A DNA stretch of 64,000 nt from Bacilli bacterium (GTDB lineage: Bacteria; Bacillota_I; Bacilli_A; ML615J-28; CAG-698). Made by a program: the position numbers and the translations under genes. Position 1 is the first letter of the stretch; every line of letters begins with the position of its first letter. The notes under the pieces are model-generated. The model was not told the origin of the DNA. It saw only the letters and a program-made list of their open reading frames with translations, and ran no database searches. Of this stretch, positions 55-60,586 are shown one piece after another. Location of the stretch: the NCBI GenBank assembly GCA_017450215.1, contig JAFSVH010000017.1, positions 3,497-67,496 on the forward strand, in the 5' to 3' direction.

Positions 55-651
55 TTACATTTCTTTTTTAGATTCTAACGATTTAATTAAAGTAATCTCA
101 TCTGCATATTCTATACTAGCTTCAACTGGAAGCCCATATCCTATTTGATATACTTTAACATTTTCTTTTGATAAAACTTTTTTAATATAAAGTGATGTTA
201 ATTCTCCTTCAAGATTAGCGGGAAAAGCAATAATCACTTCAGTTATATTGTTTTTTCTAATTCTATCAATTACTTTTTCTAATCCAATGTCTTCAGGTCC
301 AATTCCGTTTGTTGGTGATATTAAAGACTTTAGGATATGATATCTACCTTTAAATGCTTTAGTTTTTTCATATGCTATAATGCTCTTGCAATCTTCAACA
401 AGCATCAATTGATTTGATCTAGATTCATCACTACAAATATCACATATATCTTGATCAGTTATCATTCCACAAATACTACATTCATGAATCAAATTTAATG
501 AATCTGATAATGTTTTAATTAGATTTTCTATTTCAGTGATTTTATTTTCTTTAATTGCATAAAAAGCATATCGTTCAGCAGTCTTTGGGCCAACTCCTGG
601 AAATTGTTCAAAGCATTCAATTAATTCTTGGAACGTTTTTGGATAATTCAT
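55..651 (-). CDS. recR: Recombination protein RecR
   Basis: 198 aa. N-terminal helix-hairpin-helix, C4 zinc finger (CSICG...CDIC) and Toprim-like C-terminal region typical of RecR. ATG at 649-651. Position after dnaX-ybaB is conserved. Confidence 0.9.
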   Translation of the reverse strand: MNYPKTFQELIECFEQFPGVGPKTAERYAFYAIKENKITEIENLIKTLSDSLNLIHECSICGMITDQDICDICSDESRSNQLMLVEDCKSIIAYEKTKAFKGRYHILKSLISPTNGIGPEDIGLEKVIDRIRKNNITEVIIAFPANLEGELTSLYIKKVLSKENVKVYQIGYGLPVEASIEYADEITLIKSLESKKEM

Positions 652-966
652 CTAGAATAATCCTCCAAATCCTCCTAAGAATGCTTGATATTTTGCCATC
701 TTTTCTTCTGTTGTTTTTTCAATCTTTTTATATGCATCTTGACAAGCAGCAACAATCATATCACTTACCATTTCAATTTCTTCATCATCTTCTGGTTTAA
801 ATCCATCAACAAACTTAACAGCCTTTAATTCTTTGCTGCCATACATTTCAATAGAAACAACACCACCAGCAGAAGCAGTAAAAACAGTTTGTTCAATTTC
901 TTTTTGAGTTGCAACCATTTCATCTTGCATTTTTTTTATTTTCTTTAACATTACTTGTTGATTCAT
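652..966 (-). CDS. ybaB: Nucleoid-associated protein YbaB/EbfC
   Basis: YbaB family sequence (MNQQVMLKKIKKMQDEM...GGFGGLF). Start moved to the ATG at 964-966, which has a GGAG RBS; the ORF-track start at 1008 would overlap dnaX. Classic dnaX-ybaB-recR order. Confidence 0.85.
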   Translation of the reverse strand: MNQQVMLKKIKKMQDEMVATQKEIEQTVFTASAGGVVSIEMYGSKELKAVKFVDGFKPEDDEEIEMVSDMIVAACQDAYKKIEKTTEEKMAKYQAFLGGFGGLF

Positions 967-979
967 TATAATCTCCTTT

Positions 980-3900
980 TTATTTAATCTTAACGATATC
1001 ATCGCCAAACATTTTTATAGTTTGTTCTATTTTTTCTTTGTTCTTATCACCATCATCTGATATCTCTTCAACATTTAATCCAACAATGTTAAATGGGGAT
1101 AACTTTGCCCTTTTAACTCCCATCTGATATTGACTTACATATTCCTCACGTTTTTCTAGCCAAACATCAAGTGGTAGAGCTAAGTAATTATAATTAGCAC
1201 TCAATTTTGAATATAAAAATTTAATAGCCTTTGTTTTAAATGCACCCCTCATAACTTCATTACATTTAGTAACAGTTGGATAAGTAATTACAAATTCCTT
1301 GTTTCCGACAGCTTCAATCTTTCCTTGACTTAATGATTGAGCTACTGAATACATGGATGGTTCAACACCTCGCATTAATGTTTTCCAGATTTCTAAGACT
1401 CTCGCTTTATCGTTTTTAGCATTTTTATCTTGTGCATCAAACAACAATTTTTCTAAATCTTCAATATTGTAACGTGCGAATTTGTCATTTGCTTCTGGGT
1501 CTGCAGGAACAATAATTTCGTTTTGTTTTACAGTTGCAGGTTCGTTTTCAACAACATCTTTAATTACAAGACTAGATCTAGTTTTATTAATAACCTCTTC
1601 ATGGTTGCTTTCATCATAAAATTGATTAATTACCTTATCTTTTTCAATAGGCTTGAAATCAATATTCTTTTTATCTTCTATATCTTCATTATTATTCTTA
1701 TCTTCTACAACTTCTTGAGGCTTTTCTTCTTTAATACTTACAGTATCATCAAACAAACCTTCTTGAATTTCTGGTTCTTTATTTTCGGTAGATTCTGTTT
1801 TCTCTTTTTCGTCCTGCTTTTGTGTTTCTTCGATATCAATATTAAAATCAAAGAAACTTGTTTGTTTATAAACAGGTTTTTCTTCAGTGTCGCTTACAGC
1901 TTGTTTTTCATCTAAAGATGCTTCAACATCATTATTTTCTACTTCCTTTTCCTCTACTACTTGAATAGAATCATCTTCTTTAGTTTCGATAACAGGTTCA
2001 TCTTTATGCTCTTTGGCTATATTTTCAACACAAGATTCTTTTTCTTCTTCATCTTTAGCTAAATCACCAAAATCACTCTTAAAGTCTTTTTCTTCTGAAA
2101 TATCAAAATCAAAAATACTCATTTGACCTTTTGGACGCTTTTGAGTTTTTGCTTTTTCTTGCTTTTCAAGTGTGCTTGCTTTTAACTTTTCTTCTAAAGC
2201 AAGTTTGCTAGCGATAAGGTCATATATTTGTCCTTCGATTTTTTCTAATCTTTGATTTATCTCTTCATTATCTTTTTCACTTTGAACATTGACGCTTCCT
2301 TCTTGCTTGTTTTGAGCAAATGTTGAAAGTTCACTTGCAAATTCTTTTTTGATTTCGTTCTTTGCGGTTTCAATTTTTAAATCAAAAGCAGAAGTATCAT
2401 ATTCAATTGCTTCGTTTGGCTTTATAGAATTGATTTTTTCTTCTAATTCCTCAAGCTTTTTATTGAATTCATCATTTAATAAATTATTATCTTGACTTGC
2501 ATTTTTATTTTGCTCGCTTTCTAATTTATCGATTTTGCTTTGAATAAAATCAATCTTAGCTTCAATATCATTAACATCAATATCAACATAATTGTTTTCT
2601 TTTTCGTTTTCTTTCTTTTGCAATTCAGAAATCAATTCTTGTTTGATATCATTTAATTTGTTTTGAAATTCTTCAACATTCAAACTCGAATCATTATTAG
2701 ATGGTTTAGCACTATTCTTTTCTAATTCATTAATTTGCTTTTTGATATCAGCTATTTCTTTTTGAATTCTCTCTTCATTAACGCTTGACTCACTACCACC
2801 TTCAATATCAATTCTTTGACCATTTTCTAATGCGTTAATCTTGGCTTCAATATCAACAAATTTACTAGCAACATCAGATTCAAGTTCAGTCAAACGAACT
2901 GAAGAAGAAGATTTATTTTCAGCTTCTAGTTTATTTTGATGCTCGTTTACTGTGTTTTCGATATCATTAACCTTCTTAGCAAGAGTAGGTAATTCAAATT
3001 TATTTAACTCTAATACAATTTGATTTAATCTATTATCTAAATTTTTCACTTTCTCGTTATCAACGTTACTTGTAACCATATCGCCTGAAAATGATGCATC
3101 CATTAATTTGTTCTCTAATTCATCCATTCTTTTTACAACATTCAATTCTTCATTGTTAATTGAAGACATTCTAATAATTGCTATTTCTAAATAGATTCCA
3201 GGAGAATTGCTATATTTAATCTTATTTTGGATATCGCATAAAACTTCTATAAAGAAAATGATTTTTGTGTTAGCAATCTTGAAAGCAAGATTTTGAAATT
3301 TTTCTTTTTCAAAAATGTACTTATTAATTTTTTTGTTTCCGATACTCTTAAATAACATCAAATCACGGCAAAATAGTAACATTCCATTAACAATCTTATT
3401 AATCTCTTTGCCTTCTTTAATTAATGAGTTTACAACATCAAGAGCATTGTTAGCATCTTTAGAATCAATAAACGACATCAAATTACACATAACTTCAGCA
3501 TTTATACTTCCAGTAATTGTGTTTACATCATCAATTGTTATTTCCTTAGTTCCATATGATATAGTTTGATCTAAGATACTTAATGCATCACGCATGCCTC
3601 CATCAGCAATTTCACCAATCAAATCAATAGCCTCATCACTAATTTGTACATTTTCATTGTTGCAAACTTCTCTTAAACTTTTTGATATCTTATCAACATT
3701 TATTGGCTTAAACTCATATCTTTGACAACGTGAGATTATTGTTGAAGGAATCTTTTGAGGTTCGGTTGTCGCTAAAATAAATATTACATGTTTAGGTGGT
3801 TCTTCTAATATCTTCAATAAAGCATTAAAAGCACCCGTACTAAGCATATGAACTTCATCTATAATGTAAATTTTATATTTTGAACCACTTGGTAAAAATT

Positions 3901-4237
3901 TAACACGTTCTCTTATATCACGTATTTCATCAACACCATTATTACTTGCAGCATCAATTTCAATTACATCAGGACTTATGCCTTCGCTAATTTCTTTACA
4001 TACATAGCAATCGCAACAAGGTTCTCCATTAGGTTTTAAATCGATACAATTTAATGCCTTAGCAAAAATTCTTGCTACAGATGTTTTACCAGTTCCACGT
4101 GGTCCACAAAATAGATAAGCATGAGATATTTTATTGTTAATTATTGCGTTTTGTAACGTTTTTACAACAGCTTCTTGACCAACAACTTTATTAAATGTTT
4201 GAGGTCTATAAGTTCTATATAATGCTTGATATGCCAT
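980..4237 (-). CDS. dnaX: DNA polymerase III subunit tau (DnaX), unusually long: about 1085 aa with a roughly 550-aa internal coiled-coil/acidic insertion
   Basis: N-terminus MAYQALYRTYRPQTF...GPRGTGKTS (Walker A) and the zinc module CCDCYVCKE. C-terminal tau domain V-like region (WKTLMRG...PSMYSVAQSL). Start moved to the ATG at 4235-4237, which has an AAAGGAG RBS. The extra 37 codons in the ORF track lie over the asnS promoter. Confidence 0.85.
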   Translation of the reverse strand: MAYQALYRTYRPQTFNKVVGQEAVVKTLQNAIINNKISHAYLFCGPRGTGKTSVARIFAKALNCIDLKPNGEPCCDCYVCKEISEGISPDVIEIDAASNNGVDEIRDIRERVKFLPSGSKYKIYIIDEVHMLSTGAFNALLKILEEPPKHVIFILATTEPQKIPSTIISRCQRYEFKPINVDKISKSLREVCNNENVQISDEAIDLIGEIADGGMRDALSILDQTISYGTKEITIDDVNTITGSINAEVMCNLMSFIDSKDANNALDVVNSLIKEGKEINKIVNGMLLFCRDLMLFKSIGNKKINKYIFEKEKFQNLAFKIANTKIIFFIEVLCDIQNKIKYSNSPGIYLEIAIIRMSSINNEELNVVKRMDELENKLMDASFSGDMVTSNVDNEKVKNLDNRLNQIVLELNKFELPTLAKKVNDIENTVNEHQNKLEAENKSSSSVRLTELESDVASKFVDIEAKINALENGQRIDIEGGSESSVNEERIQKEIADIKKQINELEKNSAKPSNNDSSLNVEEFQNKLNDIKQELISELQKKENEKENNYVDIDVNDIEAKIDFIQSKIDKLESEQNKNASQDNNLLNDEFNKKLEELEEKINSIKPNEAIEYDTSAFDLKIETAKNEIKKEFASELSTFAQNKQEGSVNVQSEKDNEEINQRLEKIEGQIYDLIASKLALEEKLKASTLEKQEKAKTQKRPKGQMSIFDFDISEEKDFKSDFGDLAKDEEEKESCVENIAKEHKDEPVIETKEDDSIQVVEEKEVENNDVEASLDEKQAVSDTEEKPVYKQTSFFDFNIDIEETQKQDEKEKTESTENKEPEIQEGLFDDTVSIKEEKPQEVVEDKNNNEDIEDKKNIDFKPIEKDKVINQFYDESNHEEVINKTRSSLVIKDVVENEPATVKQNEIIVPADPEANDKFARYNIEDLEKLLFDAQDKNAKNDKARVLEIWKTLMRGVEPSMYSVAQSLSQGKIEAVGNKEFVITYPTVTKCNEVMRGAFKTKAIKFLYSKLSANYNYLALPLDVWLEKREEYVSQYQMGVKRAKLSPFNIVGLNVEEISDDGDKNKEKIEQTIKMFGDDIVKIK

Positions 4238-4379: not shown

Positions 4380-4632
4380 ATGATAATAAGCGTTGAAGAG
4401 AAAAGTAATTATATTAACAGAATCAGTGATATGAGGATAGTGTGAACTCATACAAGTTATATAACGAAAGAACACTCTGAGCTATAGGAAGAACAAAGTA
4501 GAACCTATCGTATTTCTGCGTTAAAGAATAATTGAGTGCAAAAAATCATTTTTTGAAATAAGGTGGTACCGCGATATTTCGTCCTTAACATTTAAATCCT
4601 TTCGATTTAATTTGTTAAGGCTTTTTTTAAGG
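4380..4632 (+). promoter_or_regulatory. T-box riboswitch leader of asnS, with terminator hairpin and U-tract
   Basis: Conserved T-box sequence AGGTGGTACCGCG at 4561-4573. Terminator stem CCTTAACA (4583-4590) / TGTTAAGG (4613-4620) followed by CTTTTTTT. An aminoacyl-tRNA synthetase gene follows. Confidence 0.75.
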
Positions 4633-7207: not shown

Positions 7208-8221
7208 TTACTTCTTAAGATTTTTCTTATCTTTGTTTGCGTCTTGTTTGCTATCAATATTCCATACAGCAACAATTACAATCATAAGAATTAACACAAT
7301 AACAAATGCTATTGTTGCTTCCCACCACAAATATTGCTTAACAGCATATTTGAAATATCCAGCTTCGAATATATCTTGATCATATGCTTTGATAACTCCA
7401 TCAGCATCTAAATTAAAGTTTTTAGCTTTTTGTACAATGCCAGTTAAACTTACAGTACCTACTTCAACTGTTGAATTTTCATCATTTGCATGTTCACTAT
7501 CAATAGCTTTAAATACTAAATCAATATTTGAAGAATATTCTTTATCAGGTGCAAATGTAAATACATTAACAGGTGCAACAGCAAGAGTAGAAGCACCAAT
7601 ATTGAATGTTCCTATTTCTTTTCCTTCAGAAGTTCTCTTTGTTTGTGTTCCGTCTTCTCTTGTAAAACCAACCCAATTATAATCTTTCATAATAGCTTCG
7701 ATTGTTGAAGTATCATCTAATGTTATATAAGTTGCAGTAACACTCTTTGATAACTCTTCGTCTGTTCCAATCTTATCATGATCAACAACATCTAAACTTA
7801 ACTTTGGTAAAAAGGCTTTTAAACCATTTACAGCATCATTTGTGAAGATTTCTTTATATAACATACCATAATCTATATTAAACACAAAGAATTGATATGT
7901 TAGTGTTCTGCTACTTTCTTCATTGTCATCATCATATGTGACTTTTGCAACAGCATATCCTTTAACAGTAAATAATTTCTTTCCTGCTGCATTATTAACA
8001 TCTTGAGAAGCAATCTCTTGATAATAACTTGCATAATAATCTAAATATGCTTTTATTTGACTTTCTGTGTTGTTTTCTTCTAATCTTGTTTCGAAATAAC
8101 CACCTTTTTCGCTCACAAACACAAAGTCTTGTTGATATCTTTTATATCCATATAATCCTATTGCAAAAGCACTAAGCAAAGGAATTATTACTACCATTAA
8201 TACAGTTATTAATTTTTTCAT
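7208..8221 (-). CDS. Hypothetical protein with an N-terminal transmembrane (TM) anchor and a C-terminal TM segment; extracytoplasmic
   Basis: Start moved to the ATG at 8219-8221 (MKKLITVLMVV...), which has a GGAGGA RBS. One TM helix at each end. No recognisable catalytic motif. Confidence 0.5.
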   Translation of the reverse strand: MKKLITVLMVVIIPLLSAFAIGLYGYKRYQQDFVFVSEKGGYFETRLEENNTESQIKAYLDYYASYYQEIASQDVNNAAGKKLFTVKGYAVAKVTYDDDNEESSRTLTYQFFVFNIDYGMLYKEIFTNDAVNGLKAFLPKLSLDVVDHDKIGTDEELSKSVTATYITLDDTSTIEAIMKDYNWVGFTREDGTQTKRTSEGKEIGTFNIGASTLAVAPVNVFTFAPDKEYSSNIDLVFKAIDSEHANDENSTVEVGTVSLTGIVQKAKNFNLDADGVIKAYDQDIFEAGYFKYAVKQYLWWEATIAFVIVLILMIVIVAVWNIDSKQDANKDKKNLKK

Positions 8222-8328
8222 TTTATCCTCCAAATAATTTACACTAGTAGCATTATATCATAACTTTTCTATATTTCAATAAATATTTATCTATGTTCTT
8301 TATAAGATTAAGTTATATTTATGCTAAA

Positions 8329-29033: not shown

Positions 29034-29972
29034 ATGGAAAAGAAGTATCATGATATTTATAAAAAGATAAGTGAATATGGAACAATTATTATTCACAGAC
29101 ATGCACGACCAGATGGTGATGCAATAGGAAGCCAAATAGGCTTAAGAGAAGCGATAAAACAAACATTCCCATATAAAAAGATATTAATGACTGGTGATAT
29201 GACTGATAGATTTGCCTTTATGGGGAAGATGGATGACGTTAAAGACAGCGACTATAATCAAGCGTTAGTGTTTATACTTGATTCTGGAGATGAATTTTTA
29301 ATTAGTGATGATAGATATAAAAATGGAAAATATATAATTAGAATAGATCATCATGTCCCTAAAAATTTGTTTGCTCATATTGAATTAATTAATCCAAATG
29401 AAATATCTTGTTCTTTAATGATTGCGAAAATGATTTTCGCAACAAGAATGCGTCTTAATAGTTTAGGCGCAAAAGCATTATTTTTAGGACTTGTGACTGA
29501 TAGTGGTAGATTTAGATATGATGGCTTAGATAAAGAAACCTTTGAAATAGCAGGCAAATTGATTAATTATGGTTTTGATTACCTTGATTTATATAATAAC
29601 ATTTATACAGAAGAACTAGAATTTGTAAAATTGAGAGCTAACCTTACAACAAAATTTAAGACAACTGAAAAAGGGGTAGCATATTTGATTAATACTCAAG
29701 AAGAAGTGAAACAATATAATGTTGATATGTTTACTATTTCTCGTGGTATGGTAAGTATAATGAGTGGCATCAAAGGAATAGATATTTGGGCAAATTTTAC
29801 TGAAGATGTTGATGGAAAAATAATTGTGGAATTAAGATGCAATAATAAATATAACGTTAATGGTATAGCATTGAAATATGGTGGTGGAGGTCATAAACAA
29901 GCAAGTGGCTGTACATTATCATGCAATGATGATATCAAAAACGTCTTAGCTGATCTTGATAAATTATTATAA
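29034..29972 (+). CDS. nrnA: DHH/DHHA1 phosphoesterase, NrnA-like (nanoRNase / pAp phosphatase)
   Basis: DHH motifs HRHARPDGDAIGS and DHH, plus the DHHA1 GGGH motif. Confidence 0.75.
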   Translation: MEKKYHDIYKKISEYGTIIIHRHARPDGDAIGSQIGLREAIKQTFPYKKILMTGDMTDRFAFMGKMDDVKDSDYNQALVFILDSGDEFLISDDRYKNGKYIIRIDHHVPKNLFAHIELINPNEISCSLMIAKMIFATRMRLNSLGAKALFLGLVTDSGRFRYDGLDKETFEIAGKLINYGFDYLDLYNNIYTEELEFVKLRANLTTKFKTTEKGVAYLINTQEEVKQYNVDMFTISRGMVSIMSGIKGIDIWANFTEDVDGKIIVELRCNNKYNVNGIALKYGGGGHKQASGCTLSCNDDIKNVLADLDKLL

Positions 29973-29984
29973 AGGACAAAAAAG

Positions 29985-30956
29985 ATGGATAGAGAAATTG
30001 TTGAACGAATTATTAATAAAATTAAAGAATATGACACAATTATTATTCATAGGCATATTAGACCTGATGGTGATGCAATCGGCACATCACTTGGTTTGAG
30101 AGATGGCTTAAGGGAGTCGTTCCCTAATAAGAATATATATTCTGTTGGTGCGGATTTACCTGACTATTTAAGTTTTGTCGGTGAAGAGGATGTTGTTCAA
30201 GATGAATTATACGAAAATGCTCTTGCTATTGTTGTCGATACTGCTGTAGCTGATAGAGTGTATGATCAAAGATTCTTAAAGGCTAAAGAAATAATTAAGA
30301 TAGACCATCATATTGTTGTTGATAGCTATGGTGTGATTAATTATGTTCAAGAAAAATATGGATCATGCAGTCAAATTATAGCTGAAATGTTTTATGAATT
30401 TCCTGATGTGCTTAAGATGAACAAAAGCGCAGCAAGATATCTGTTACTCGCAATGATTACTGATACAGGAAGATTTAAATTTACAATCGATGGTGGCGGA
30501 TTAAGAATGGCTGCTTTTTTGGTTGATTTTGGTATCGATGTTGAGATGTTATATGCAAATTTATACACTAAGGATAAAGAAGTTTATAAATTAACAGGTT
30601 GGGTATATGATAATTTTGAAATATCAGAAAATGGTGTTGCTTATATCAAAATAACAAAAGATATAAAGAAAAAGTATCATGTAAGTAATGAAGATGCATC
30701 TAATACAGTTAATCTTCTTGATTCAATTAGAGGGTCTATGATTTGGCTTTTATTTAATGAACAAGATGAAGAAATCCGCGTTAGATTGCGTTCAAGATTT
30801 ATTGAAGTTGATAAAATTGCCAATAATTATAAAGGTGGTGGACATGCTAATGCCGCTGGTGCAACAGTATATTCATTTGAAGAAGCAGACCAATTAATTC
30901 TAGAATGTGACCAATTATTAAAAGAATATAAAGAAAACAATAAGGATAAATTCTAA
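29985..30956 (+). CDS. Second DHH/DHHA1 phosphoesterase, NrnA paralog
   Basis: HRHIRPDGDAIGT, DHH and GGGH motifs. Tandem paralog of the preceding gene. Confidence 0.75.
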   Translation: MDREIVERIINKIKEYDTIIIHRHIRPDGDAIGTSLGLRDGLRESFPNKNIYSVGADLPDYLSFVGEEDVVQDELYENALAIVVDTAVADRVYDQRFLKAKEIIKIDHHIVVDSYGVINYVQEKYGSCSQIIAEMFYEFPDVLKMNKSAARYLLLAMITDTGRFKFTIDGGGLRMAAFLVDFGIDVEMLYANLYTKDKEVYKLTGWVYDNFEISENGVAYIKITKDIKKKYHVSNEDASNTVNLLDSIRGSMIWLLFNEQDEEIRVRLRSRFIEVDKIANNYKGGGHANAAGATVYSFEEADQLILECDQLLKEYKENNKDKF

Positions 30957-39167: not shown

Positions 39168-40067
39168 ATGAGATCTAAAAAAATATATATAAAATGTAAT
39201 AAGTGCGGAAAAGTTAACATTATAGGGAATTTAAATGAAGAGCTTAAATGTTCAAATTGTCATTTTCCTATGTCCATAAATGAATCTTTAATTATCAAAA
39301 ATAAAGAAAAATCAGCCGATAGACTACTTTATGAATTAGAAAATAAGATAATTATAGGTGATAGTTATAAATCAATTCTATCTATACTTATTGAAAAAGG
39401 TGTGGACAATGATTTAATTAAATATTTAAAATGCAAAAATGATAATACAAGTTTATCTTTTATTAGTGATTCATCGCCATATAAATGGCTTATTCTTAAA
39501 GATATTTTGAAAGACGATGAATTTACAATAGAAAAAAAGAAAGAATTAATCTCTTCAATAAGCATTACAGATAAAGAAATGTATTTTGAAATACTGAATG
39601 AGTCGATATTTAAGTTAGAAAAATCAAAAAAACTAATTGAAGAGCTAAAAAACAAAAAAATAGATATGGTGTTTAATGAACCAAAGTTGATAAACCATAA
39701 CATAACACCTGCAAAGATTGTTATTGGTGTGCTTTCAATTTTATTAATATTTATATTTACACTATTTTTTGATAATGATTTAGGAAAACCAATTTCAATA
39801 ATATTAAGTTTAATACCAAGTATTATTATTGGCGTTAATATTGTAGTAAATATAAAAATAAAAAAAGTATATCAAGTATTAGTTGGTATAATATTATGCT
39901 TTATCTTGTTCTATTTTATTTCATATATTTTAATAATAAGATATGATGGTTTAATTAATTTAACTCAACATATGAAAAATATTATTAATTCTGTTCCTAA
40001 TTTTGTACATGAGATATTCGAAAGATTAGAACTTAACGGAATTTTAGAAGAAGTTGAGGGAGAGTAA
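39168..40067 (+). CDS. Hypothetical protein: N-terminal C4 zinc ribbon, cytoplasmic region, 3 C-terminal TM helices
   Basis: CNKCGK...CSNCHF zinc-ribbon motif. TM helices after residue 180. No database family recognised by eye. Confidence 0.45.
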   Translation: MRSKKIYIKCNKCGKVNIIGNLNEELKCSNCHFPMSINESLIIKNKEKSADRLLYELENKIIIGDSYKSILSILIEKGVDNDLIKYLKCKNDNTSLSFISDSSPYKWLILKDILKDDEFTIEKKKELISSISITDKEMYFEILNESIFKLEKSKKLIEELKNKKIDMVFNEPKLINHNITPAKIVIGVLSILLIFIFTLFFDNDLGKPISIILSLIPSIIIGVNIVVNIKIKKVYQVLVGIILCFILFYFISYILIIRYDGLINLTQHMKNIINSVPNFVHEIFERLELNGILEEVEGE

Positions 40068-40068
40068 T

Positions 40069-40674
40069 ATGAAAAATGTAATTGGATTAGAAAAATATAG
40101 GGAATATCAAAAGCGAATTAGCGAATTATCGAAAGAAGTAATGAAATATAGAAGTGAGAATGATGATACATCAGTTATGGAATTAATAAAAAACGAAGAA
40201 AAAAAGAAAAGTCTTGATAGATATTTCTTGCTTACTATCTTATTAGTTACTTTAGTTGTTGGAACAATTACTTCATTTCTTAAAATAATGGAAAAAACTA
40301 ATCTATTTTGGATAGATCTAGTAATTTATGGTTTGTGGGGAATTACTTTTATTGTCCTTTATAAAATAAATAAGCAAAAAAAGAAAAAATTAATAGCAAA
40401 AAGAGAAGGATTAATCTCAAAAGAGAGTGAAGTAATAAAGAATTATGAGAACGAACAGAGCAAAATTTATGATATTGTAGTTTACATCATAACATTAAAC
40501 GATTTTTATCACGAATTAATAAATGAAAGTGGTGAAAAATTAGAGGAAAAATGGCAGAAATTAACACAAAGAGTAATTGAAGCAATTAATGAAGATGTAA
40601 AATATGATGTATGCGTTCAAACTTATCAAAATTTCTTCAATGAATGGTTGAGAAAAAACGAAATATATGGATAA
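40069..40674 (+). CDS. Hypothetical membrane protein (2 TM plus cytoplasmic helical domain)
   Basis: Start moved to the ATG at 40069 with a GGGAGAG RBS; the ORF-track start is TTG at 40054. Overlaps the next gene by 8 nt. Confidence 0.4.
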   Translation: MKNVIGLEKYREYQKRISELSKEVMKYRSENDDTSVMELIKNEEKKKSLDRYFLLTILLVTLVVGTITSFLKIMEKTNLFWIDLVIYGLWGITFIVLYKINKQKKKKLIAKREGLISKESEVIKNYENEQSKIYDIVVYIITLNDFYHELINESGEKLEEKWQKLTQRVIEAINEDVKYDVCVQTYQNFFNEWLRKNEIYG

Positions 40675-41809: not shown

Positions 41810-44200
41810 ATGAGAAAAAAGATATTTATATTAATTATTCTTTTCTTATTAATATTAGTAGTTGGATGTGGAGAAGAAAAAGAATTAAAAATTGTAGGTT
41901 CAAATAACTTAGAATTAGGATTTGAAGAAACATATAAATTATTTAGTGGTAGTGTTGAATTAGATTCTGAGAGTGCTTATTGGACTTCTAGTGATAGAAC
42001 AATCGCATTATGTAATAATGGAATAATAAAACCATTAAAAGAAGGTGTATGTGATATCACTGCAGTTCTAAAGAGTGACGGAACAAAGGTTGCAAAAACA
42101 ACAATAACTATTACTGATGCTTTGATTAAGGCAGTTGAAATATACTCACGTGAAGGATTTTCATTATATGTTGATGATGTATTATTGTTAGATTATAAAA
42201 TTTACCCTGAAAATGTGAATGTTGAAATGGTATGGTCTAGTAGTGATGAGTCAATAGCAACAGTTGATGATACTGGGTGTGTAACCGGTAAAAGCGTTGG
42301 TAGAACAACAATTAGATTACAAAGTGGTAAAGCAGTAAGTGAAGTTGAAGTTGTTGTAAAAGAAAGAATAACCGAATTGCAAATGACATCATCAAATAAT
42401 GCTATAGTTGGTCAATCTTTCAAAATGTCATTTAATGTTGAAGATGCTATAGTAACATTAGAAGATAATGATGGTATTATTGAAAAAATTGGTAACTATT
42501 ATTTTGCAAAAAAAGTAGGTACAGTAAAAGCTAAAGTTTCATCAAAATCTTTGTCATCATTAAAGAATGAATTTGAAATACATGTTTATGATGGAACTTC
42601 AATGGAAAAACTATGTAATAAGATGCATGTTAATAGTAATGTTGATACTGCAATAGTTAAAAATACAGCAAATACATTGAGTGATGTTCAAAAACTAGGA
42701 CAAATGATGGTTATGAATACGTCATTAAATAGTGTAAAAGAAGATGATGATGGTTTATATTTTACTGATACAGTTTCTGGTAGAATTCAAAAAGTATATT
42801 TAGTTGATTTCTATGAAAATAAATTCTTTGGTAATTATCATTATTCAAGTATTAATGGTGTAGATGATTCAAAAGAGACATTAAATCTATATTATAAATA
42901 TGCTTTTGCTACAAACACTATTGGATCATTAAACATTGTTAGTGCCAGTAGACTTAATTATCAAGGCTATTTCTCATATAAAATTAATAACAAAGGCATT
43001 GGAAATTTAGCACAAAATCAAGTTGAGACATATTATCAGAATATTGCTACACAATTAAAAGAGTTAGGTTATAACATAATAATTGAAGATGGTTATACAA
43101 GTTATAATGAATTAGGAGTATTCAAAAAAGATAATGTTGAGAATAATTATTATTCAACTGTAGCACGAAAATCATATGAAAAATTAGGTATTATGGTTGG
43201 ATATGATGTCGATTATCTAGAAGATTATAATAAAACAGCACAATGCTTGATTAATTTGGTGAACAATGATGTTGATTTTATTCAAATTGAATATAATGCA
43301 AATGATTTTTGTGATGGAAAGAGCACTATTGAATATTTAAGAGATGTTTTACAATATGAAGGAATAATATATTTAAATACTGACTATTATAATTTTGCTT
43401 ACGAGGATGATGAAGTTGGTTTAGCTTATGATTATTATTTAAACGCAATATTACAAGGTGCTGATTTAATTAATGCTCCACTATCTCTTTCTACAAGCCG
43501 TTGGTATCGTGATGGTTTTAATGAAATTGTTCTTCCTATGTGTGATAGATTAATCAATGAATATACATCTAATGATAAGTTAAAGCAAAGAATTGATGAA
43601 TCTGTTGAAAGAATCATTACAAAAAAATATGAATATAAATGTATTGAAGCAACAGAAATTAGTGAAAATGATATAGATCATTCTGCTACTAATAGAGCAG
43701 TATCTACAATATTGAAATCTTCTTATGAAGTAAGCGAAGGATTTAAGAAAATAGAAAAAGACAAGAATTTTATCGTTTTTGGATATCAATTTAATACAGG
43801 ATCATATTATGATGGTGGAAGAATTCAATATAATTTTGTGAAAAATGTTCAAGAAAGTTTTGGAAAAGATTATAAATTAACTGCTTATTCTAATTATTAT
43901 AGCGGATATGAATCATATAAAGATTCATATGATGTAAATGATCAAGTTGTTATATTGTTAAATTCTGAATATTATACTTATTCTTATGAGAGTAGTCATG
44001 GAAGGGTATATGATTCAATGGATTTAATTAATATGATTAAAGATATATATAAATTAGGTGTTACAAATATTCAAGTTATAGTGATTGGTAGTCCAAGCAT
44101 AGAAGCATCTTTACCAGATTATGTAGAAGTTATTCAGACAAATTCAAGTTACACAATTGGATTTAGTGAAATTATTGATATTTTAAAGAATGGTAAATAA
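41810..44200 (+). CDS. Large surface lipoprotein with N-terminal Big_2 (Ig-like) domains and an uncharacterised C-terminal region
   Basis: Signal peptide with lipobox VVGC. Repeated Big_2-like segments. TGGTAAAAT extended -10 promoter upstream. Confidence 0.5.
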   Translation: MRKKIFILIILFLLILVVGCGEEKELKIVGSNNLELGFEETYKLFSGSVELDSESAYWTSSDRTIALCNNGIIKPLKEGVCDITAVLKSDGTKVAKTTITITDALIKAVEIYSREGFSLYVDDVLLLDYKIYPENVNVEMVWSSSDESIATVDDTGCVTGKSVGRTTIRLQSGKAVSEVEVVVKERITELQMTSSNNAIVGQSFKMSFNVEDAIVTLEDNDGIIEKIGNYYFAKKVGTVKAKVSSKSLSSLKNEFEIHVYDGTSMEKLCNKMHVNSNVDTAIVKNTANTLSDVQKLGQMMVMNTSLNSVKEDDDGLYFTDTVSGRIQKVYLVDFYENKFFGNYHYSSINGVDDSKETLNLYYKYAFATNTIGSLNIVSASRLNYQGYFSYKINNKGIGNLAQNQVETYYQNIATQLKELGYNIIIEDGYTSYNELGVFKKDNVENNYYSTVARKSYEKLGIMVGYDVDYLEDYNKTAQCLINLVNNDVDFIQIEYNANDFCDGKSTIEYLRDVLQYEGIIYLNTDYYNFAYEDDEVGLAYDYYLNAILQGADLINAPLSLSTSRWYRDGFNEIVLPMCDRLINEYTSNDKLKQRIDESVERIITKKYEYKCIEATEISENDIDHSATNRAVSTILKSSYEVSEGFKKIEKDKNFIVFGYQFNTGSYYDGGRIQYNFVKNVQESFGKDYKLTAYSNYYSGYESYKDSYDVNDQVVILLNSEYYTYSYESSHGRVYDSMDLINMIKDIYKLGVTNIQVIVIGSPSIEASLPDYVEVIQTNSSYTIGFSEIIDILKNGK

Positions 44201-47837: not shown

Positions 47838-48614
47838 ATGGGAAAAATAATTGCTATCTCAAACCAGAAGGGTGGAGTTGGTAAAACTACCACTGCAATC
47901 AATTTAGCACATGCTTTATCAAGAAAAGAGAAGAAAGTATTATTAGTTGATCTTGATCAACAAGGTAATGCATCTTTAGGAGTAGGCTTAAATAGCGAAC
48001 TATTAAAAATATCTACATATGATTTATTAACAACTGATATTGAAACTAAAGATGTAATTTATAGTCCTATGGATTTGTCTTTTCATATTATTCCTGCATC
48101 TTTTAAGCTTGCATATGTTTATGAAAAAATGTTTGGTGTTAAGGACAAAGAATTGGTTCTTAAAAATAAATTATTTCAAATAAAGGATAATTATGATTTT
48201 ATTTTAATTGATTGTCCACCTACGATGGGATTATTAGTAGATAATGCATTATTTGCTGCAGATTCTGTGATTATTCCTGTCGAATGTAATTATTATGCTT
48301 ATACAGCTTTGACACAAGTGGTTAATCAAATTAATCAAATTCAAAAAGTAAAAAATACAATGGGATTATCATTAAAGATAGAAGGTGTATTATTAACAAA
48401 ATTTGATAATCGAAGTTTAGTAGGGTACAAAGTAATTGATAAAGTAAAAGAGATGTTTCCAAAAAACACTTTTAAAACAATTATTAATAGATCGAGTCAC
48501 ATCGAGGAAGCACCTATTTATGGGCAAACTGTAATTAAATATGCTTATAATTCTAAAGGAAGCAAGGATTACAGAGAATTAGCAAAAGAAATATTGGATA
48601 AAGGAGATAATTAA
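47838..48614 (+). CDS. soj: Chromosome partitioning ATPase Soj/ParA
   Basis: Walker A KGGVGKTTTAINLA; 258 aa; canonical Soj length. No parB/spo0J gene follows. Confidence 0.85.
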   Translation: MGKIIAISNQKGGVGKTTTAINLAHALSRKEKKVLLVDLDQQGNASLGVGLNSELLKISTYDLLTTDIETKDVIYSPMDLSFHIIPASFKLAYVYEKMFGVKDKELVLKNKLFQIKDNYDFILIDCPPTMGLLVDNALFAADSVIIPVECNYYAYTALTQVVNQINQIQKVKNTMGLSLKIEGVLLTKFDNRSLVGYKVIDKVKEMFPKNTFKTIINRSSHIEEAPIYGQTVIKYAYNSKGSKDYRELAKEILDKGDN

Positions 48615-48616
48615 CT

Positions 48617-49384
48617 ATGAATGGATTTCAAAAAATAGTTGAATGGTTTAAACAATATTCATATAAAATTGCATTGTGCCTTTTGGTGATTTTAGCTGTA
48701 TTAGTCATTGTGTTATTATTAAAATTATTGATAATGAAGCTAAAAAAGAAAGTAGATGTAAGAGGTCGAAAAATTGCTAGTTTAATTTATAGTATTGTGA
48801 AATATACAATTATATTGTTTTCTTTTTTTGTGATTCTTGCGATATGGGATTTTGATACAACAATTGGAGTAATATTATTTTCAATAGTGGTTTTAGTGAT
48901 TGGACTAAGTGCTATACCTTTGATAAGAGATATTATTAATGGTATATCAATTATATTTTCAAATACATATGCAGAAGGAGATGTAATTGAAGTAAATGGA
49001 TATAAAGGCAAGGTAATTGGATTTTCTATTTTTAAAACTAAAATTCAATTAAAGAATGGAAGTGTAGTTGTATTAGCAAATAACACAATTCAAAATGTAA
49101 TTAATTATTCAAAAGATTATGTAAATGCATCAATTAAAATAGAAATTACAGAACTTGATAGAGTTGATGAAATAATCAACATTATAGATAATACATTAAG
49201 TAATATTAAAGATAATGTAGATGGCATTGTTGAAGGGCCAAATCTAGTTGGCTTAGAAAAATATGAAAATGGGATAGCAACTTATAAAATTACAGCTAAG
49301 ACAACAATTGATGATTATAATAAGGTTATGAAAGGATTGCAAGAATATGCTCTAAAGATAACAAGAGAGCATAAAATAAGATAA
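48617..49384 (+). CDS. Small-conductance mechanosensitive channel (MscS) family protein
   Basis: N-terminal TM helices and an MscS-like beta-domain (GDVIEVNGYKGKVIGFSIFKTKIQLKNGSVVVLAN). Confidence 0.6.
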   Translation: MNGFQKIVEWFKQYSYKIALCLLVILAVLVIVLLLKLLIMKLKKKVDVRGRKIASLIYSIVKYTIILFSFFVILAIWDFDTTIGVILFSIVVLVIGLSAIPLIRDIINGISIIFSNTYAEGDVIEVNGYKGKVIGFSIFKTKIQLKNGSVVVLANNTIQNVINYSKDYVNASIKIEITELDRVDEIINIIDNTLSNIKDNVDGIVEGPNLVGLEKYENGIATYKITAKTTIDDYNKVMKGLQEYALKITREHKIR

Positions 49385-57845: not shown

Positions 57846-57884
57846 TTAAATAGTAAAATAAATACTCATTTTTATTCTGCATTT

Positions 57885-58011
57885 ATTTTCAGGGCAAGGT
57901 GAAATTCCTGACCGGTGGTAAAGTCCACGAGCTGTTATATAAGCATGAAATGGTGAAATTCCATTACCGATAGTATAGTCTAGATGAAAGAAATAAAAGA
58001 AAGGATTATAC
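57885..58011 (+). promoter_or_regulatory. Structured 5' leader (candidate riboswitch aptamer of unassigned class) with two hairpins presenting identical UGAAAUU loops
   Basis: GGUGAAAUUCC occurs twice (57899-57909 and 57952-57962), each closing a short stem. A third hairpin GUGG-UAAAGU-CCAC lies between them. A terminator follows and the downstream gene is a putative transporter S component. Confidence 0.4.
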
Positions 58012-58050
58012 AATAGTGCCCATTATAACCTTATTTGGGCACTATTTTAT
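58012..58050 (+). terminator. Leader (attenuator) terminator: ATAGTGCCC-loop-GGGCACTAT plus T-run
   Basis: 9-bp stem at 58012-58020 / 58037-58045 followed by TTTTATTTATATT. The ORF-track N-terminus MPIITLFGHYFIYI is the translation of this hairpin. Confidence 0.55.
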
Positions 58051-58057
58051 TTATATT

Positions 58058-58789
58058 ATGAAAACAACAATAAAAGCCTTAGCTGCTGGATTAATATTAG
58101 TAGCTATTGTAACTATATCATTGATCTATTTCTTTAAAAAAGAAAACAAAGATAATTTAACAAAAAAGCAAAAAACAAGAAAAATGGCGATGGTGTCAAT
58201 ATTGAGTGCTTTATCTGTCGTGCTATACTTTTTAAAATTCCCTTTACCATTTTTTGTTAGTTTTTTAGATGTTCAATTTTCTAATTTGCCAGTGTTTCTA
58301 GCAAGTTTTATGTTTGGACCTGTTGAAGGAATTGTTGTAGCATTAATTAGAACTTTAATTAAAATTCCTTTTTCTTCAACAATGTGTGTTGGTGAATTAC
58401 AAGATTTAATTATTTCGATTACTATATCTTGTATTTCGGGAATAGTATATTTTAGAAATAAAACAAGAAAGGGAGCATTAATTTCTCTCATACTTGCTAG
58501 TGTATCTTGGGTTTTGATTGCTTTATTATCAAATGCCTTTATTTCTGTTCCTTTTTACATTAAATTTATGTTTAATGGAGATAATACAGTTATTGTTAAT
58601 ATGATTAAAGCAGTAATACCAAATACTACAAGCGAAAACTATTTAATGAATTATTTATTACTATCATGCTTACCTTTTAATATATTGTTAAGCAGTGTGG
58701 TGAGTTTAATAACTTTCTTGGTGTATAAAAGAACATCAATCTTATTTAAGAAATTTATTTATAAAGATGATATGCAAGGAGATATCTAA
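58058..58789 (+). CDS. ECF-transporter S component-like integral membrane protein (substrate unknown)
   Basis: Start moved to the ATG at 58058 (MKTTIKALAAG). Multi-TM protein with the S-component-like segment FLDVQFSNLPVFLASFMFGPVEGIVVALI. Confidence 0.45.
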   Translation: MKTTIKALAAGLILVAIVTISLIYFFKKENKDNLTKKQKTRKMAMVSILSALSVVLYFLKFPLPFFVSFLDVQFSNLPVFLASFMFGPVEGIVVALIRTLIKIPFSSTMCVGELQDLIISITISCISGIVYFRNKTRKGALISLILASVSWVLIALLSNAFISVPFYIKFMFNGDNTVIVNMIKAVIPNTTSENYLMNYLLLSCLPFNILLSSVVSLITFLVYKRTSILFKKFIYKDDMQGDI

Positions 58790-58792
58790 ATA

Positions 58793-60586
58793 ATGAAAAA
58801 AGCATTTATTGGTATATTTATTATAATTACATGTTTATTTGTTCTTTGTGCCTGTGGTGAAGCAAAAGAAGCAACAATCGAATGTGAAGATTTATTTTTA
58901 TTACTTGATGGTACTCAAAAGATTAATGCTACTTCAAATATAGAAAAAGCATCATATGTGTATGAAATTGTTGAAGGCGATGCTATTGAAATTCAAGGTG
59001 ATCATGTCTATGGTAAAAAACTAGGTATAGCAAAAGTAAATGTATCTATTAAAGGATATGAAGGAACAAAAACCATCACTATTGAAGTTGTTGAAGAAGG
59101 ATTAAAGTTGACTGGTCCAAGTGAGGTTGTTATTGAAGAACAAATTGAATTAACATTACACAAATTTGGTATTGATGATGAAGAATATATAACATGGAGA
59201 AGCCTAAATCCAGAAATTGCTACAGTGTTTAAAGGTCTTGTTACAGGTGTTGCTTTAGGTAAGGCAAAAATAATTGCAAGATCTGATGTTTTTACTACTG
59301 AATTTGAAATTGAAGTTATTAGACCAACAGCAACAGAACTTGTTGTAGAAGGCAATGTAGATACAATTAAATTAGATACAGATTGTGAATATGAATTGGA
59401 TTATGAAGTATTACCTTTCTACGCATCAAAGGATATTGTTGTTACAAGTGATAATGAATTAGTAAAGGTTGTTGATGCATACAAAATTCAAACAAAGGGA
59501 ATTGGAAAAGCGAAATTAACTATTGTGTCAGTAAGCAACAATAAATTAATTAAAGAATTAAATATTGATGTAGTGCAAAAAGAAGGACCAAAATTTGAAA
59601 AGCAAAGTGATTACAAAGAGGTAATTGATGTTAATTATGGTGATGTTTCTGCGCTTTTACAAGGATTAAAAGTAATTGATAATGCTGATGGTGAAATTGG
59701 TGATAAAATATCATGTAACATTAATGACTTACATTCATATGGTGAAAAAGAAATCGAAATTACAGCTCAAGATAGAGCAGGTAATCAATCAACATTCACA
59801 AGAAAAATTAATGTAATTTGGACTTATAAAACAAAATTTATTGGTCATAGAGGTAGTATATATGGTGTTGCAAACACTGAAGAAGCATTCCTATATGCAG
59901 CACGTGATTTGCATTATCAAGCATTAGAGTGTGATGTTCATCAAACAAGTGATGGTGTGTTTGTTGTAAATCATGACGATGATTATTTAGGAATTAATAT
60001 TGCAAGTATTACATATGATGAACTAAAAACAATTGAAAAAACAGAAAAGACATTTGGATACCCTAAATCATTAGGTTTAGCTGAAGAAAAATATACTGCT
60101 ACAATTTGTACAGTAGAAAGATATTTACAAATATGTAAAGAATATGGATGTATTGCTGTTGTTGAACTAAAATCCTCACCAGGTATTTCTAGCTATAGCC
60201 AAGATAGAATGCAAGCATTGATGGATTTAATTACTAATTGTGGAATGTTAGATAATTTAATTATTCTTACATCACAAAGAGCATGTCTAGAATGGTTAAG
60301 AACTCATAATTATAAAGACGTTAAAGCACAATATCTTGTAAATAGTTTGGAAAGCGAAGATACTTTAAATTATTGTATAAAGAATAATTTTGATATTAGT
60401 TCAAATGTTTCTGGTGATCATCCAAGTCAAGAGTGGATTGATAAATATCATGCAGCAGGACTTGAAGTATCTGTATGGACATTCTCTTCATATAGTGATT
60501 ATTCAGCTGTTCAAAAATATATCGATAAAGGTGTTGATTATGTAACAGTAGATTGGCACATTATGGAAAACTTAGATTTGAAATAA
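58793..60586 (+). CDS. Surface lipoprotein: Big_2 domains plus a C-terminal glycerophosphodiester phosphodiesterase (GDPD) domain
   Basis: Lipobox LCAC. GDPD motifs HRGS, E..D.H.T.DG and VNHDDD in the C-terminal 250 aa. Confidence 0.7.
   Translation: MKKAFIGIFIIITCLFVLCACGEAKEATIECEDLFLLLDGTQKINATSNIEKASYVYEIVEGDAIEIQGDHVYGKKLGIAKVNVSIKGYEGTKTITIEVVEEGLKLTGPSEVVIEEQIELTLHKFGIDDEEYITWRSLNPEIATVFKGLVTGVALGKAKIIARSDVFTTEFEIEVIRPTATELVVEGNVDTIKLDTDCEYELDYEVLPFYASKDIVVTSDNELVKVVDAYKIQTKGIGKAKLTIVSVSNNKLIKELNIDVVQKEGPKFEKQSDYKEVIDVNYGDVSALLQGLKVIDNADGEIGDKISCNINDLHSYGEKEIEITAQDRAGNQSTFTRKINVIWTYKTKFIGHRGSIYGVANTEEAFLYAARDLHYQALECDVHQTSDGVFVVNHDDDYLGINIASITYDELKTIEKTEKTFGYPKSLGLAEEKYTATICTVERYLQICKEYGCIAVVELKSSPGISSYSQDRMQALMDLITNCGMLDNLIILTSQRACLEWLRTHNYKDVKAQYLVNSLESEDTLNYCIKNNFDISSNVSGDHPSQEWIDKYHAAGLEVSVWTFSSYSDYSAVQKYIDKGVDYVTVDWHIMENLDLK

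Follow-up and report, generated by a model that had tools for sequence, protein, structure and literature searches.

A long tau (DnaX) tether with a conserved, candidate clamp-binding motif in an uncultured lineage of Bacilli

The tau protein, product of dnaX, connects clamp loader, polymerases and helicase in the bacterial replisome; the tether within it is generally regarded as a passive string of low conservation. Bacillus subtilis makes only tau, and the tether of Escherichia coli tau is Pro-rich. Motifs that bind the beta sliding clamp, DnaN, usually lie in disordered segments. Their bacterial consensus is Q-phi-x-L-F or QL[S/D]LF with critical positions 1, 4 and 5; in the DnaN cleft, subsite I takes up the LF pair and subsite II the Q, and pentapeptides measured on B. 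subtilis DnaN are those of PolC (QLSLF), DnaE (QMGLF, weak), MutS (QLSFF) and Pol Y1 (QLDLF) (PMC12309361; bioRxiv 10.64898/2026.05.27.728225). Here, we analyse the dnaX gene in a stretch of 64,000 nucleotides from an uncultured Bacilli bacterium (contig JAFSVH010000017.1), referred to as the window.

In the dnaX product of the window, the tether is a conserved modular architecture, and its near-invariant element is a pentapeptide of canonical clamp-binding type. As far as sequence comparison can tell, what appears to be new is this near-invariant pentapeptide in a tau tether together with a conserved helical region. Our literature search found no report of DnaX tethers with a coiled coil or with a motif for clamp binding.

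Identity of the protein and extent of its linker

The protein of 1085 amino acids (aa) is identical to MBQ7275797.1 from a metagenome-assembled genome (MAG) named "Bacilli bacterium". It scores 468 bits against TIGR02397 (cut-off 250) and 573 bits against NF004046, the Bacillus-type DnaX profile of 567 positions (cut-off 400). The latter aligns in two pieces, aa 2-452 and approximately aa 919-1081 (profile positions 416-564), and thus indicates approximately 500 aa of extra linker relative to the Bacillus-type profile. Measured between domains I-III and the C-terminal domain, the linker comprises 560 aa. A preliminary description of the locus had claimed a DnaX of about twice the usual size with a linker of approximately this length. 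The open reading frame (ORF), the two-piece match and the approximately 218 long homologs described below bear this out.

Family scores, folds and operon agree in identifying the protein as a genuine, functional tau clamp-loader subunit, and the gene is embedded in the classical context dnaX-ybaB-recR that is typical of DnaX. Both ends are intact, as had been proposed. The P-loop AAA+ domain I, the lid domain II and the collar domain III were all found above curated cut-offs, and the Pfam families PF13177, PF22608 and PF12169 cover aa 20-359. In Foldseek comparisons, domains I-III match the gamma chains of E. coli with a template modelling (TM) score of approximately 0.8 and 36% identity. AlphaFold2 predicts them with a local distance difference test score (pLDDT) of about 90, and their ratio of nonsynonymous to synonymous substitution rates (dN/dS) is 0-0.02.

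The tau-specific partner-binding domain at the C-terminus is recovered by the alignment with NF004046. As an isolated fragment it matches this profile at E = 5e-4, and its relationship to the C-domain of Bacillus-type DnaX proteins can be called a firm case of homology by profile comparison. In a second AlphaFold2 model, built for the fragment aa 860-1085, the domain reaches a pLDDT of 95-98. A Foldseek search of the C-domain against the PDB gave no match at E <= 1e-3 (all E > 0.01). The weak leaders of this search were DnaA domain I (4tps, TM 0.66; 2e0g) and DciA (8a3v, 7ykm), and the entries for the C-domain of E. coli tau (5fku_E, 5fkv_E and 2aya) appeared within the top 25 with E = 0.4-0.7 and TM 0.36-0.44. 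DnaA domain I, DciA and domain V of E. coli tau are reported to share the type-II KH fold (PMC8216460). At the level of the modelled fold, "tau domain V-like" therefore seems a reasonable label for the C-domain. N-terminal to it, the fragment model contains a small three-strand beta module (aa 869-892) with a pLDDT of approximately 90, which is moderately conserved in the clade of long homologs and lies outside the profile NF004046.

Hundreds of DnaX proteins with lengths of 780-1180 aa were retrieved by a homolog search in 5.8 billion proteins, and approximately 218 distinct DnaX proteins of more than 750 aa, from MAGs of Bacilli/Acholeplasmatales, have the same layout. In 120 homologs, the N-terminal part is constant at 356 aa and the C-domain at approximately 168 aa, so that the linker alone is variable. 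Linkers of the long clade span 244-655 aa, with none below 244 aa, and those of a few distant relatives span 33-118 aa. The comparison with related DnaX proteins that the preliminary description had called for therefore identifies the insertion as a trait of the whole lineage, with a variable length. The same architecture was obtained when the search was seeded with the distant Acholeplasmataceae protein P0119. Named hits were all MAGs labelled Bacilli, Acholeplasmataceae or Acholeplasmatales bacterium, and no cultured organism was among the homologs in either of the two protein searches. With the C-domain as query, phmmer found only 136 matches among 1.84 billion cluster representatives. A scan of the genome collection with peptide patterns from the whole protein gave only an unrelated DnaX fragment from Saccharibacteria.

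Conserved elements of the linker

In an alignment of 108 homologs, the columns of the linker have a mean conservation of 1.28 bits, those of domains I-III 3.40 bits and those of the C-domain 2.77 bits. Conservation within the linker is concentrated in islands at aa 361-380, 391-430, 661-680 and 701-730, with a weaker one at aa 871-900; these five islands are kept across proteins that are approximately 43% identical overall. Across the 108 sequences, just eleven linker positions are at least 90% conserved, namely R370, E375, K396, E410, L414, E415, E668, Q705, L708, F709 and F723.

The last four of these residues belong to the motif island, where a pentapeptide has Q705, L708 and F709 at its positions 1, 4 and 5. 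The family logo reads K-K-x-x-K-K-N-N-G-Q-[I/M]-x-L-F-[G/D]-[D/E]-[E/D], with Q in 103 of 103 sequences, L in 99, F in 98, and I, M, L or V at position 2. QxxhF stands between a basic patch and an acidic flank in 197 of the 218 distinct long DnaX proteins, most commonly in the form QIMLF (72), QIVLF (25) and QMSIF, QMSLF or QMMLF (11 each). Some family members carry at the conserved site a pentapeptide that has been validated in other proteins, namely QLSFF (four members), QMGLF (two) and QLDLF (two). The pattern Q..[LIMFV]F was counted 129 times in the 108 linkers, compared to 14 occurrences expected by shuffling and to 10 occurrences across all folded domains. Selection on the island is stronger than on its surroundings: in comparison with a homolog of 74% identity, dN/dS is 0.10 in the motif island and 0.20-0.24 in the remaining linker. 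The element thus agrees with the Q-phi-x-L-F consensus, is located in a stretch of predicted disorder, where it would be accessible, and is conserved above the background of the linker. A profile of 47 motif-island sequences found nothing at E <= 1e-3 in the 5.8 billion proteins, for which database size the profile is too short.

Besides the primary pentapeptide QMSIF, the protein of the window contains two further candidates, and none of the three is polymorphic among 11 strain variants. The second motif, QTSFF (QxxFF), is lineage-specific and shared with the closest relatives P0001, P0002 and P0003. At the site equivalent to the third motif, QEGLF (QxxLF), GLF motifs recur in homologs (KEGLFDD, HGLFDY, KGLFESE). 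In the tails of the family, secondary [LIM]F motifs are approximately 2.2-fold enriched (176 versus 81), far less than the primary motif. The preliminary description had emphasised repeated FDF motifs in an acidic region and compared them to short linear docking motifs. The strings SIFDFDISEEKDF and SFFDFNIDIEE are indeed found in the translation, but the FDF form (QMSIFDF, QTSFFDF) is confined to the nearest relatives of the query, and the unit common to the family is Q-phi-x-L-F, preceded by a basic patch and followed by acidic residues. The idea of F-containing acidic docking motifs itself holds up, in that Q-phi-x-L-F is conserved and matches the consensus for binding to the beta clamp.

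Two further observations were made on motifs of this kind. At aa 722-726, the sequence DFGDL (window positions 2072-2086) represents a conserved element [VY]-D-F-x-x-L, located 14-24 residues downstream of QxxLF, which includes the conserved F723. Among distant DnaX proteins, P0216, P0242, P0222 and P0263, with tethers of 69-118 aa, show degenerate acidic LF motifs (SDLDLFSL, SFDLFEE, SQLDDF, KMNLFQ); P0247, P0251 and P0265, with tethers of 33-53 aa, have no LF-type motif.

The motif island lies within the acidic tail, which follows the heptad-like part as the preliminary description had it. Over aa 683-865, the AlphaFold2 model has a pLDDT below 50 and no secondary structure. The tail is also the most variable region within the species: 14.8% of its sites vary among the 11 strain variants.

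The preceding part of the linker is helical. The main AlphaFold2 model, which was built with the 108-sequence alignment, predicts ten helices (aa 367-380, 394-413, 416-444, 447-471, 487-509, 517-545, 555-580, 585-603, 617-638 and 654-688) of 14-35 residues each, with a pLDDT of 50-80 and with N/S/G-rich loops between them. The sequence shows the hydrophobic heptad periodicity known from coiled coils. Over aa 357-700, the a/d heptad score is 0.56 compared to 0.34 +/- 0.03 in shuffled sequences, i.e., 6 standard deviations above the shuffles, and a heptad excess of z = 5-10 recurs in 17 divergent homologs with helical parts of 116-381 aa. E, K and N are abundant in the helical part (22% D+E), whose dN/dS is approximately 0.2. 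Self-BLASTP detected no internal repeats in this region, and a recent tandem duplication as the origin of the helices was thus rejected. Given that the helices are short and interrupted by loops, the coiled-coil insert of the preliminary description is better termed a series of amphipathic heptad-like helices. The heptad character stands, but approximately ten separate helices without repeats do not establish a continuous coiled coil.

Two helical elements are noteworthy for their conservation. The helix hairpin at aa 391-430 is the best conserved island of the linker apart from the motif island. It contributes K396, E410, L414 and E415 to the conserved positions and is kept even in the shortest of the long-form relatives; it could contact the helicase or contribute to a stalk between tau subunits. 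The last conserved helix before the motif contains the island aa 661-680 with the conserved E668.

No domain family was matched by the linker. A Pfam scan of the whole protein (E <= 0.1) found no tau domain IV or V family and, in aa 360-916, only a sub-threshold match to End3; NCBIfam gave no match for the linker alone, and a PDB sequence search with aa 365-1085 gave no significant match. The linker had been equated with domain IV of tau. This correspondence is one of position only, as no domain IV family was found in the Pfam scan.

Table 1. Coordinates of dnaX, its parts and associated genes in the window
Feature	Position	Strand	Basis
dnaX (tau), 1085 aa + stop codon	980..4237	-	ORF and translation (ATG at 4237, stop at 980-982), family profiles
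Clamp-loader domains I-III (aa 1-357): AAA+ module, lid, collar	3167..4237	-	Pfam, Foldseek, AlphaFold2
Helical heptad-like linker part (aa 358-690), approximately 10 helices, E/K/N-rich	2168..3166	-	AlphaFold2, heptad score
Conserved helix hairpin (aa 391-430; VDNEKV..LNQIVLELNKFELPTLAKKV; also written VDNEKV..LNQIVLELNKFELP.L)	2948..3067	-	Conservation
Last conserved helix before motif (aa 654-688; ..RLEKIEGQIYDLIASKLA..)	2174..2278	-	AlphaFold2 helix, conservation
Acidic disordered tail (aa 689-865), 31% D+E	1643..2173	-	pLDDT approximately 30, composition
Motif island (aa 691-730): basic patch KTQKRPKG, QMSIF, acidic run, DFGDL	2048..2167	-	Conservation, logo
Primary clamp-binding-like pentapeptide QMSIF (aa 705-709)	2111..2125	-	Coordinates checked by translation
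Second motif QTSFF (aa 792-796)	1850..1864	-	Translation
Third motif QEGLF (aa 825-829)	1751..1765	-	Translation
Small three-strand beta module (aa 869-892; VINQFYDESNHEEVINKTRSSLVI)	1562..1633	-	AlphaFold2 strands
C-terminal alpha/beta domain, tau domain V-like (aa 917-1085)	983..1489	-	NF004046 positions 416-564
ybaB, operon partner, 104 aa from ATG	652..966	-	PF02575
recR, operon partner	55..651	-	RecR Pfam domains
dnaN (beta sliding clamp, 373 aa), predicted binding partner	16375..17496	+	PF00712, PF02767, PF02768; directly downstream of dnaA

Possible functions of the tether

From these data, we lean towards reading the linker as a tau tether that presents clamp-binding motifs behind a helical spacer or stalk. 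That the Q-phi-x-L-F element binds the cleft of DnaN is the better supported part, and we regard it as somewhat more probable than not. DnaN is encoded in the window itself, and no clamp-binding protein other than the candidate tau was found there (no PolC, DnaE, MutS, MutL, LigA or DinB).

On this reading, the tether of a single uncultured, Acholeplasmatales-like lineage within the Bacilli has grown to 244-655 residues (560 here), starting from a few dozen. The chain of helices, which starts directly at the collar, would most likely act as a semi-rigid spacer; as three tau subunits stand side by side in tau3-delta-delta', an inter-subunit helical stalk is conceivable as well. Our assignment of the helices to a spacer or an inter-tau stalk projecting from the collar is tentative. 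The tethered motifs would bind the hydrophobic cleft of DnaN, by which each loader could hold clamps, or stay on loaded clamps, near the fork. This would raise the local clamp concentration for repeated loading on the lagging strand, and the motifs may compete with the polymerases for the cleft at hand-off. As for other tau proteins, binding of the replicative polymerase, the helicase or both would fall to the C-terminal domain. Tau of B. subtilis forms trimers and a tau3-delta-delta' complex (PMC3643586), and with this stoichiometry each of three tethers could hold a clamp or stay on a loaded one. In its most far-reaching form, the idea would be that of a replisome hub rebuilt in the whole lineage, with one to several functional clamp-binding motifs on an acidic tether, a possibly three-stranded stalk and clamps stored at the fork. 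We consider this extended version possible but rather doubtful.

Several points weigh against a clamp-binding tether. QxxLF is a short motif, and in the query its position 4 is Ile (QMSIF) instead of Leu. A strict QxxLF is missing from 21 of the 218 long homologs, mostly the most distant ones, and some homologs show variants such as QVVFV or ALSLY. The secondary motifs are only about twofold enriched, with a weak enrichment of Q at position -4. As to the helices, their pLDDT is only moderate, and a monomer model is blind to coiled-coil pairing. Furthermore, contact between loader and clamp in E. coli is made via a motif in delta and structured domains of gamma, and a 2024 review on the beta clamp mentions no motif in the tau tether (PMC11139829).

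The conserved island might also serve to dock another partner. We know of no clamp-binding consensus that includes the DFxxL element, which means that the island could be a composite site, e.g., for PolC/DnaE, the helicase, primase or SSB, in a role similar to that of domain IV. The island does exceed a pentapeptide: besides DFxxL with its conserved F723, it includes hydrophobic positions at +8, +9 and +11. It is moreover placed where E. coli tau binds DnaB, and for B. subtilis tau, binding to the helicase and an effect on primase have been reported (PMC3643586). However, the clamp consensus has its critical positions, 1, 4 and 5, precisely where the island is invariant, and the pentapeptides of several homologs are identical to those of validated clamp binders. 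The linker has no significant Pfam family, and hence nothing points to a domain IV of the E. coli kind. To our knowledge, no motif for binding a helicase, SSB or a polymerase has the form of the QxxLF island. We therefore judge a different partner to be unlikely, though worth keeping in mind.

Equally unlikely, in our view, is a mostly passive, composition-driven expansion in an AT-rich genome, which would leave a loose flexible tether whose helices and additional LF motifs have no specific function. Such an origin would be in accordance with the large differences in linker length between relatives, with the low mean conservation of the linker relative to domains I-III, with its variability within the species, which is the highest of all regions, and with the lack of domain families and internal repeats at a G+C content of approximately 29%. 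Long variable linkers occur in DnaX proteins elsewhere as well, and a curated DnaX model of 984 positions exists (NF011511). Size, which had been put forward as noteworthy, is real but for this reason ordinary when taken alone. A passive string, on the other hand, is difficult to reconcile with a linker dN/dS of 0.2-0.3, well below 1, which indicates a coding sequence under purifying selection. Nor does it account for a heptad periodicity that is kept in 17 divergent homologs, for five islands that persist at approximately 43% overall identity, for a long clade that never falls below 244 aa, or for the near-invariance of the primary motif.

The preliminary description had raised polar or nucleoid localisation as a possible role of the insert, and its coiled coils might then act as a scaffold that positions the replisome at the pole, the membrane or the nucleoid. 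Bacterial scaffolding proteins often contain long amphipathic helices, and the heptad signal is present, but the sub-threshold End3 match is the sole Pfam hit of the region, no known localisation or scaffold family and no PDB sequence was found, the region is net acidic without a membrane- or DNA-binding signature, and no neighbouring gene hints at a localisation system, which makes this role very improbable. It can be dismissed with near certainty that dnaX is a pseudogene, a two-gene fusion or an assembly chimera, since the 1085-aa protein is found with 0-20 mismatches in 11 independent NCBI, ENA and Logan records, ten of them variants with 1-20 substitutions, two other samples have an uninterrupted gene of 1085 or 1087 aa with the same neighbours asnS, ybaB and recR, hundreds of homologs share the architecture, and the region is under purifying selection.

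If the tethered pentapeptide binds DnaN, the loader would gain a second mode of holding clamps, by means of its tether. This would bear on the recycling of clamps on the lagging strand and on the variation of replisomes outside E. coli and B. subtilis. It would also bear on how loader and polymerase take turns on the clamp cleft, which has been called enigmatic (PMC11139829). The degenerate LF motifs in the shorter tethers of P0216, P0242, P0222 and P0263 hint that contact of the tau tether with the clamp could extend further among Bacilli than is recognised. Since the cleft is an antibiotic target, each new candidate clamp-binding protein matters in this respect, too.

Genomic surroundings and comparison with known systems

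For the operon partner ybaB, gene calls on the contigs of the two other samples (L002 and L003) also give 104 aa. The C-terminus of YbaB (window positions 652-690) is rich in glycine and closes with the LF of ...QAFLGGFGGLF. Upstream of dnaX and on the opposite strand lies asnS, which is preceded by a T-box leader (4384-4589); a second T-box leader belongs to serS (26077-26255). The origin region (8329-26078) comprises mnmE, a gene for an R3H (jag-like) protein, yidC, dnaA (14793-16307), dnaN, a recF-like gene, gyrB and gyrA, and dnaX is located only approximately 10 kb from dnaA. Near dnaA, matches to the DnaA-box consensus, which is that of E. coli, are not enriched (20 versus 24 expected). 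A ParA-like gene follows just after dnaN on the minus strand (17552-18337), and another gene for a soj/parA-like ATPase is found beside rsmG (47838-49384), followed by a gene for an MscS-like channel instead of parB. Tandem paralogs with DHH/DHHA1 domains (NrnA-like), then surE, occupy positions 29034-30956. Two large Big_2 proteins, one of them with a GDPD domain, are encoded at 41810-44200 and 58793-60586 and are probably surface proteins. A flavin mononucleotide (FMN) riboswitch (57881-57999) precedes an unannotated ORF of 257 aa (58016-58789). No Pfam match was obtained at the thresholds used for three ORFs of 206-368 aa at 7208-8233 (-), 13600-14706 (-) and 39168-40674 (+).

The preliminary description had suggested a search for a programmed frameshift that would yield gamma, and no credible site was found in dnaX. 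A slippery heptamer of the E. coli type A AAA AAG does not occur in frame, formal X XXY YYZ heptamers are present only at aa 66, 398 and 619, none of them conserved, and the sole A7 run lies within domain III. At aa 398-400 (window positions 3037-3045), the heptamer A AAT TTA is followed one codon later by a stop in the -1 frame, which would give a gamma-like product of approximately 400 aa. As the codons are not conserved in homologs, this heptamer probably arose by chance.

With Bacillus-type DnaX proteins (NF004046 / PRK05563, approximately 567 aa), the protein of the window has in common domains I-III, a short helix after the collar, a homologous C-domain and the gene order dnaX-ybaB-recR. 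The Bacillus-type profile, however, has a tether of a few dozen residues, whereas the tether here has 560 aa with approximately ten helices, the acidic tail, QxxLF and the additional beta module. Tau of E. coli (643 aa) follows the same logic of an AAA+ loader, a flexible tether and a C-terminal partner-binding domain. There, domain IV provides the tether and binds DnaB, and domain V binds alpha; the protein of the window has no Pfam match to either domain, and its linker, unlike the tether of E. coli, is helical and acidic. Tethers have been expanded in other lineages as well, where NF011511 / PRK14949 describes proteins of approximately 1000 aa. Against this model, the protein of the window scores 336 bits (cut-off 1016), and the two expansions are independent.

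With the bacterial clamp-binding motifs described so far, the element of the tether shares positions 1, 4 and 5, the aliphatic residue at position 2 and the disordered setting. It differs in its host protein, here the tau tether of the clamp loader, and in the Ile at position 4 of the first motif of the query. Should it bind the clamp, bacteria would possess an equivalent of the clamp-interaction motifs known from RFC of archaea and eukaryotes. The large subunit of archaeal RFC carries a PIP box on a flexible C-terminal tail, and RFC motifs are mostly located on the structured AAA+ face. PIP-box motifs have been described in RFC1, RFC3 and RFC5 (PMC3201878). The parallel consists in a clamp loader that bears its own clamp-interaction motif, and it is one of analogy only, between unrelated protein families and with an unrelated clamp (PCNA).

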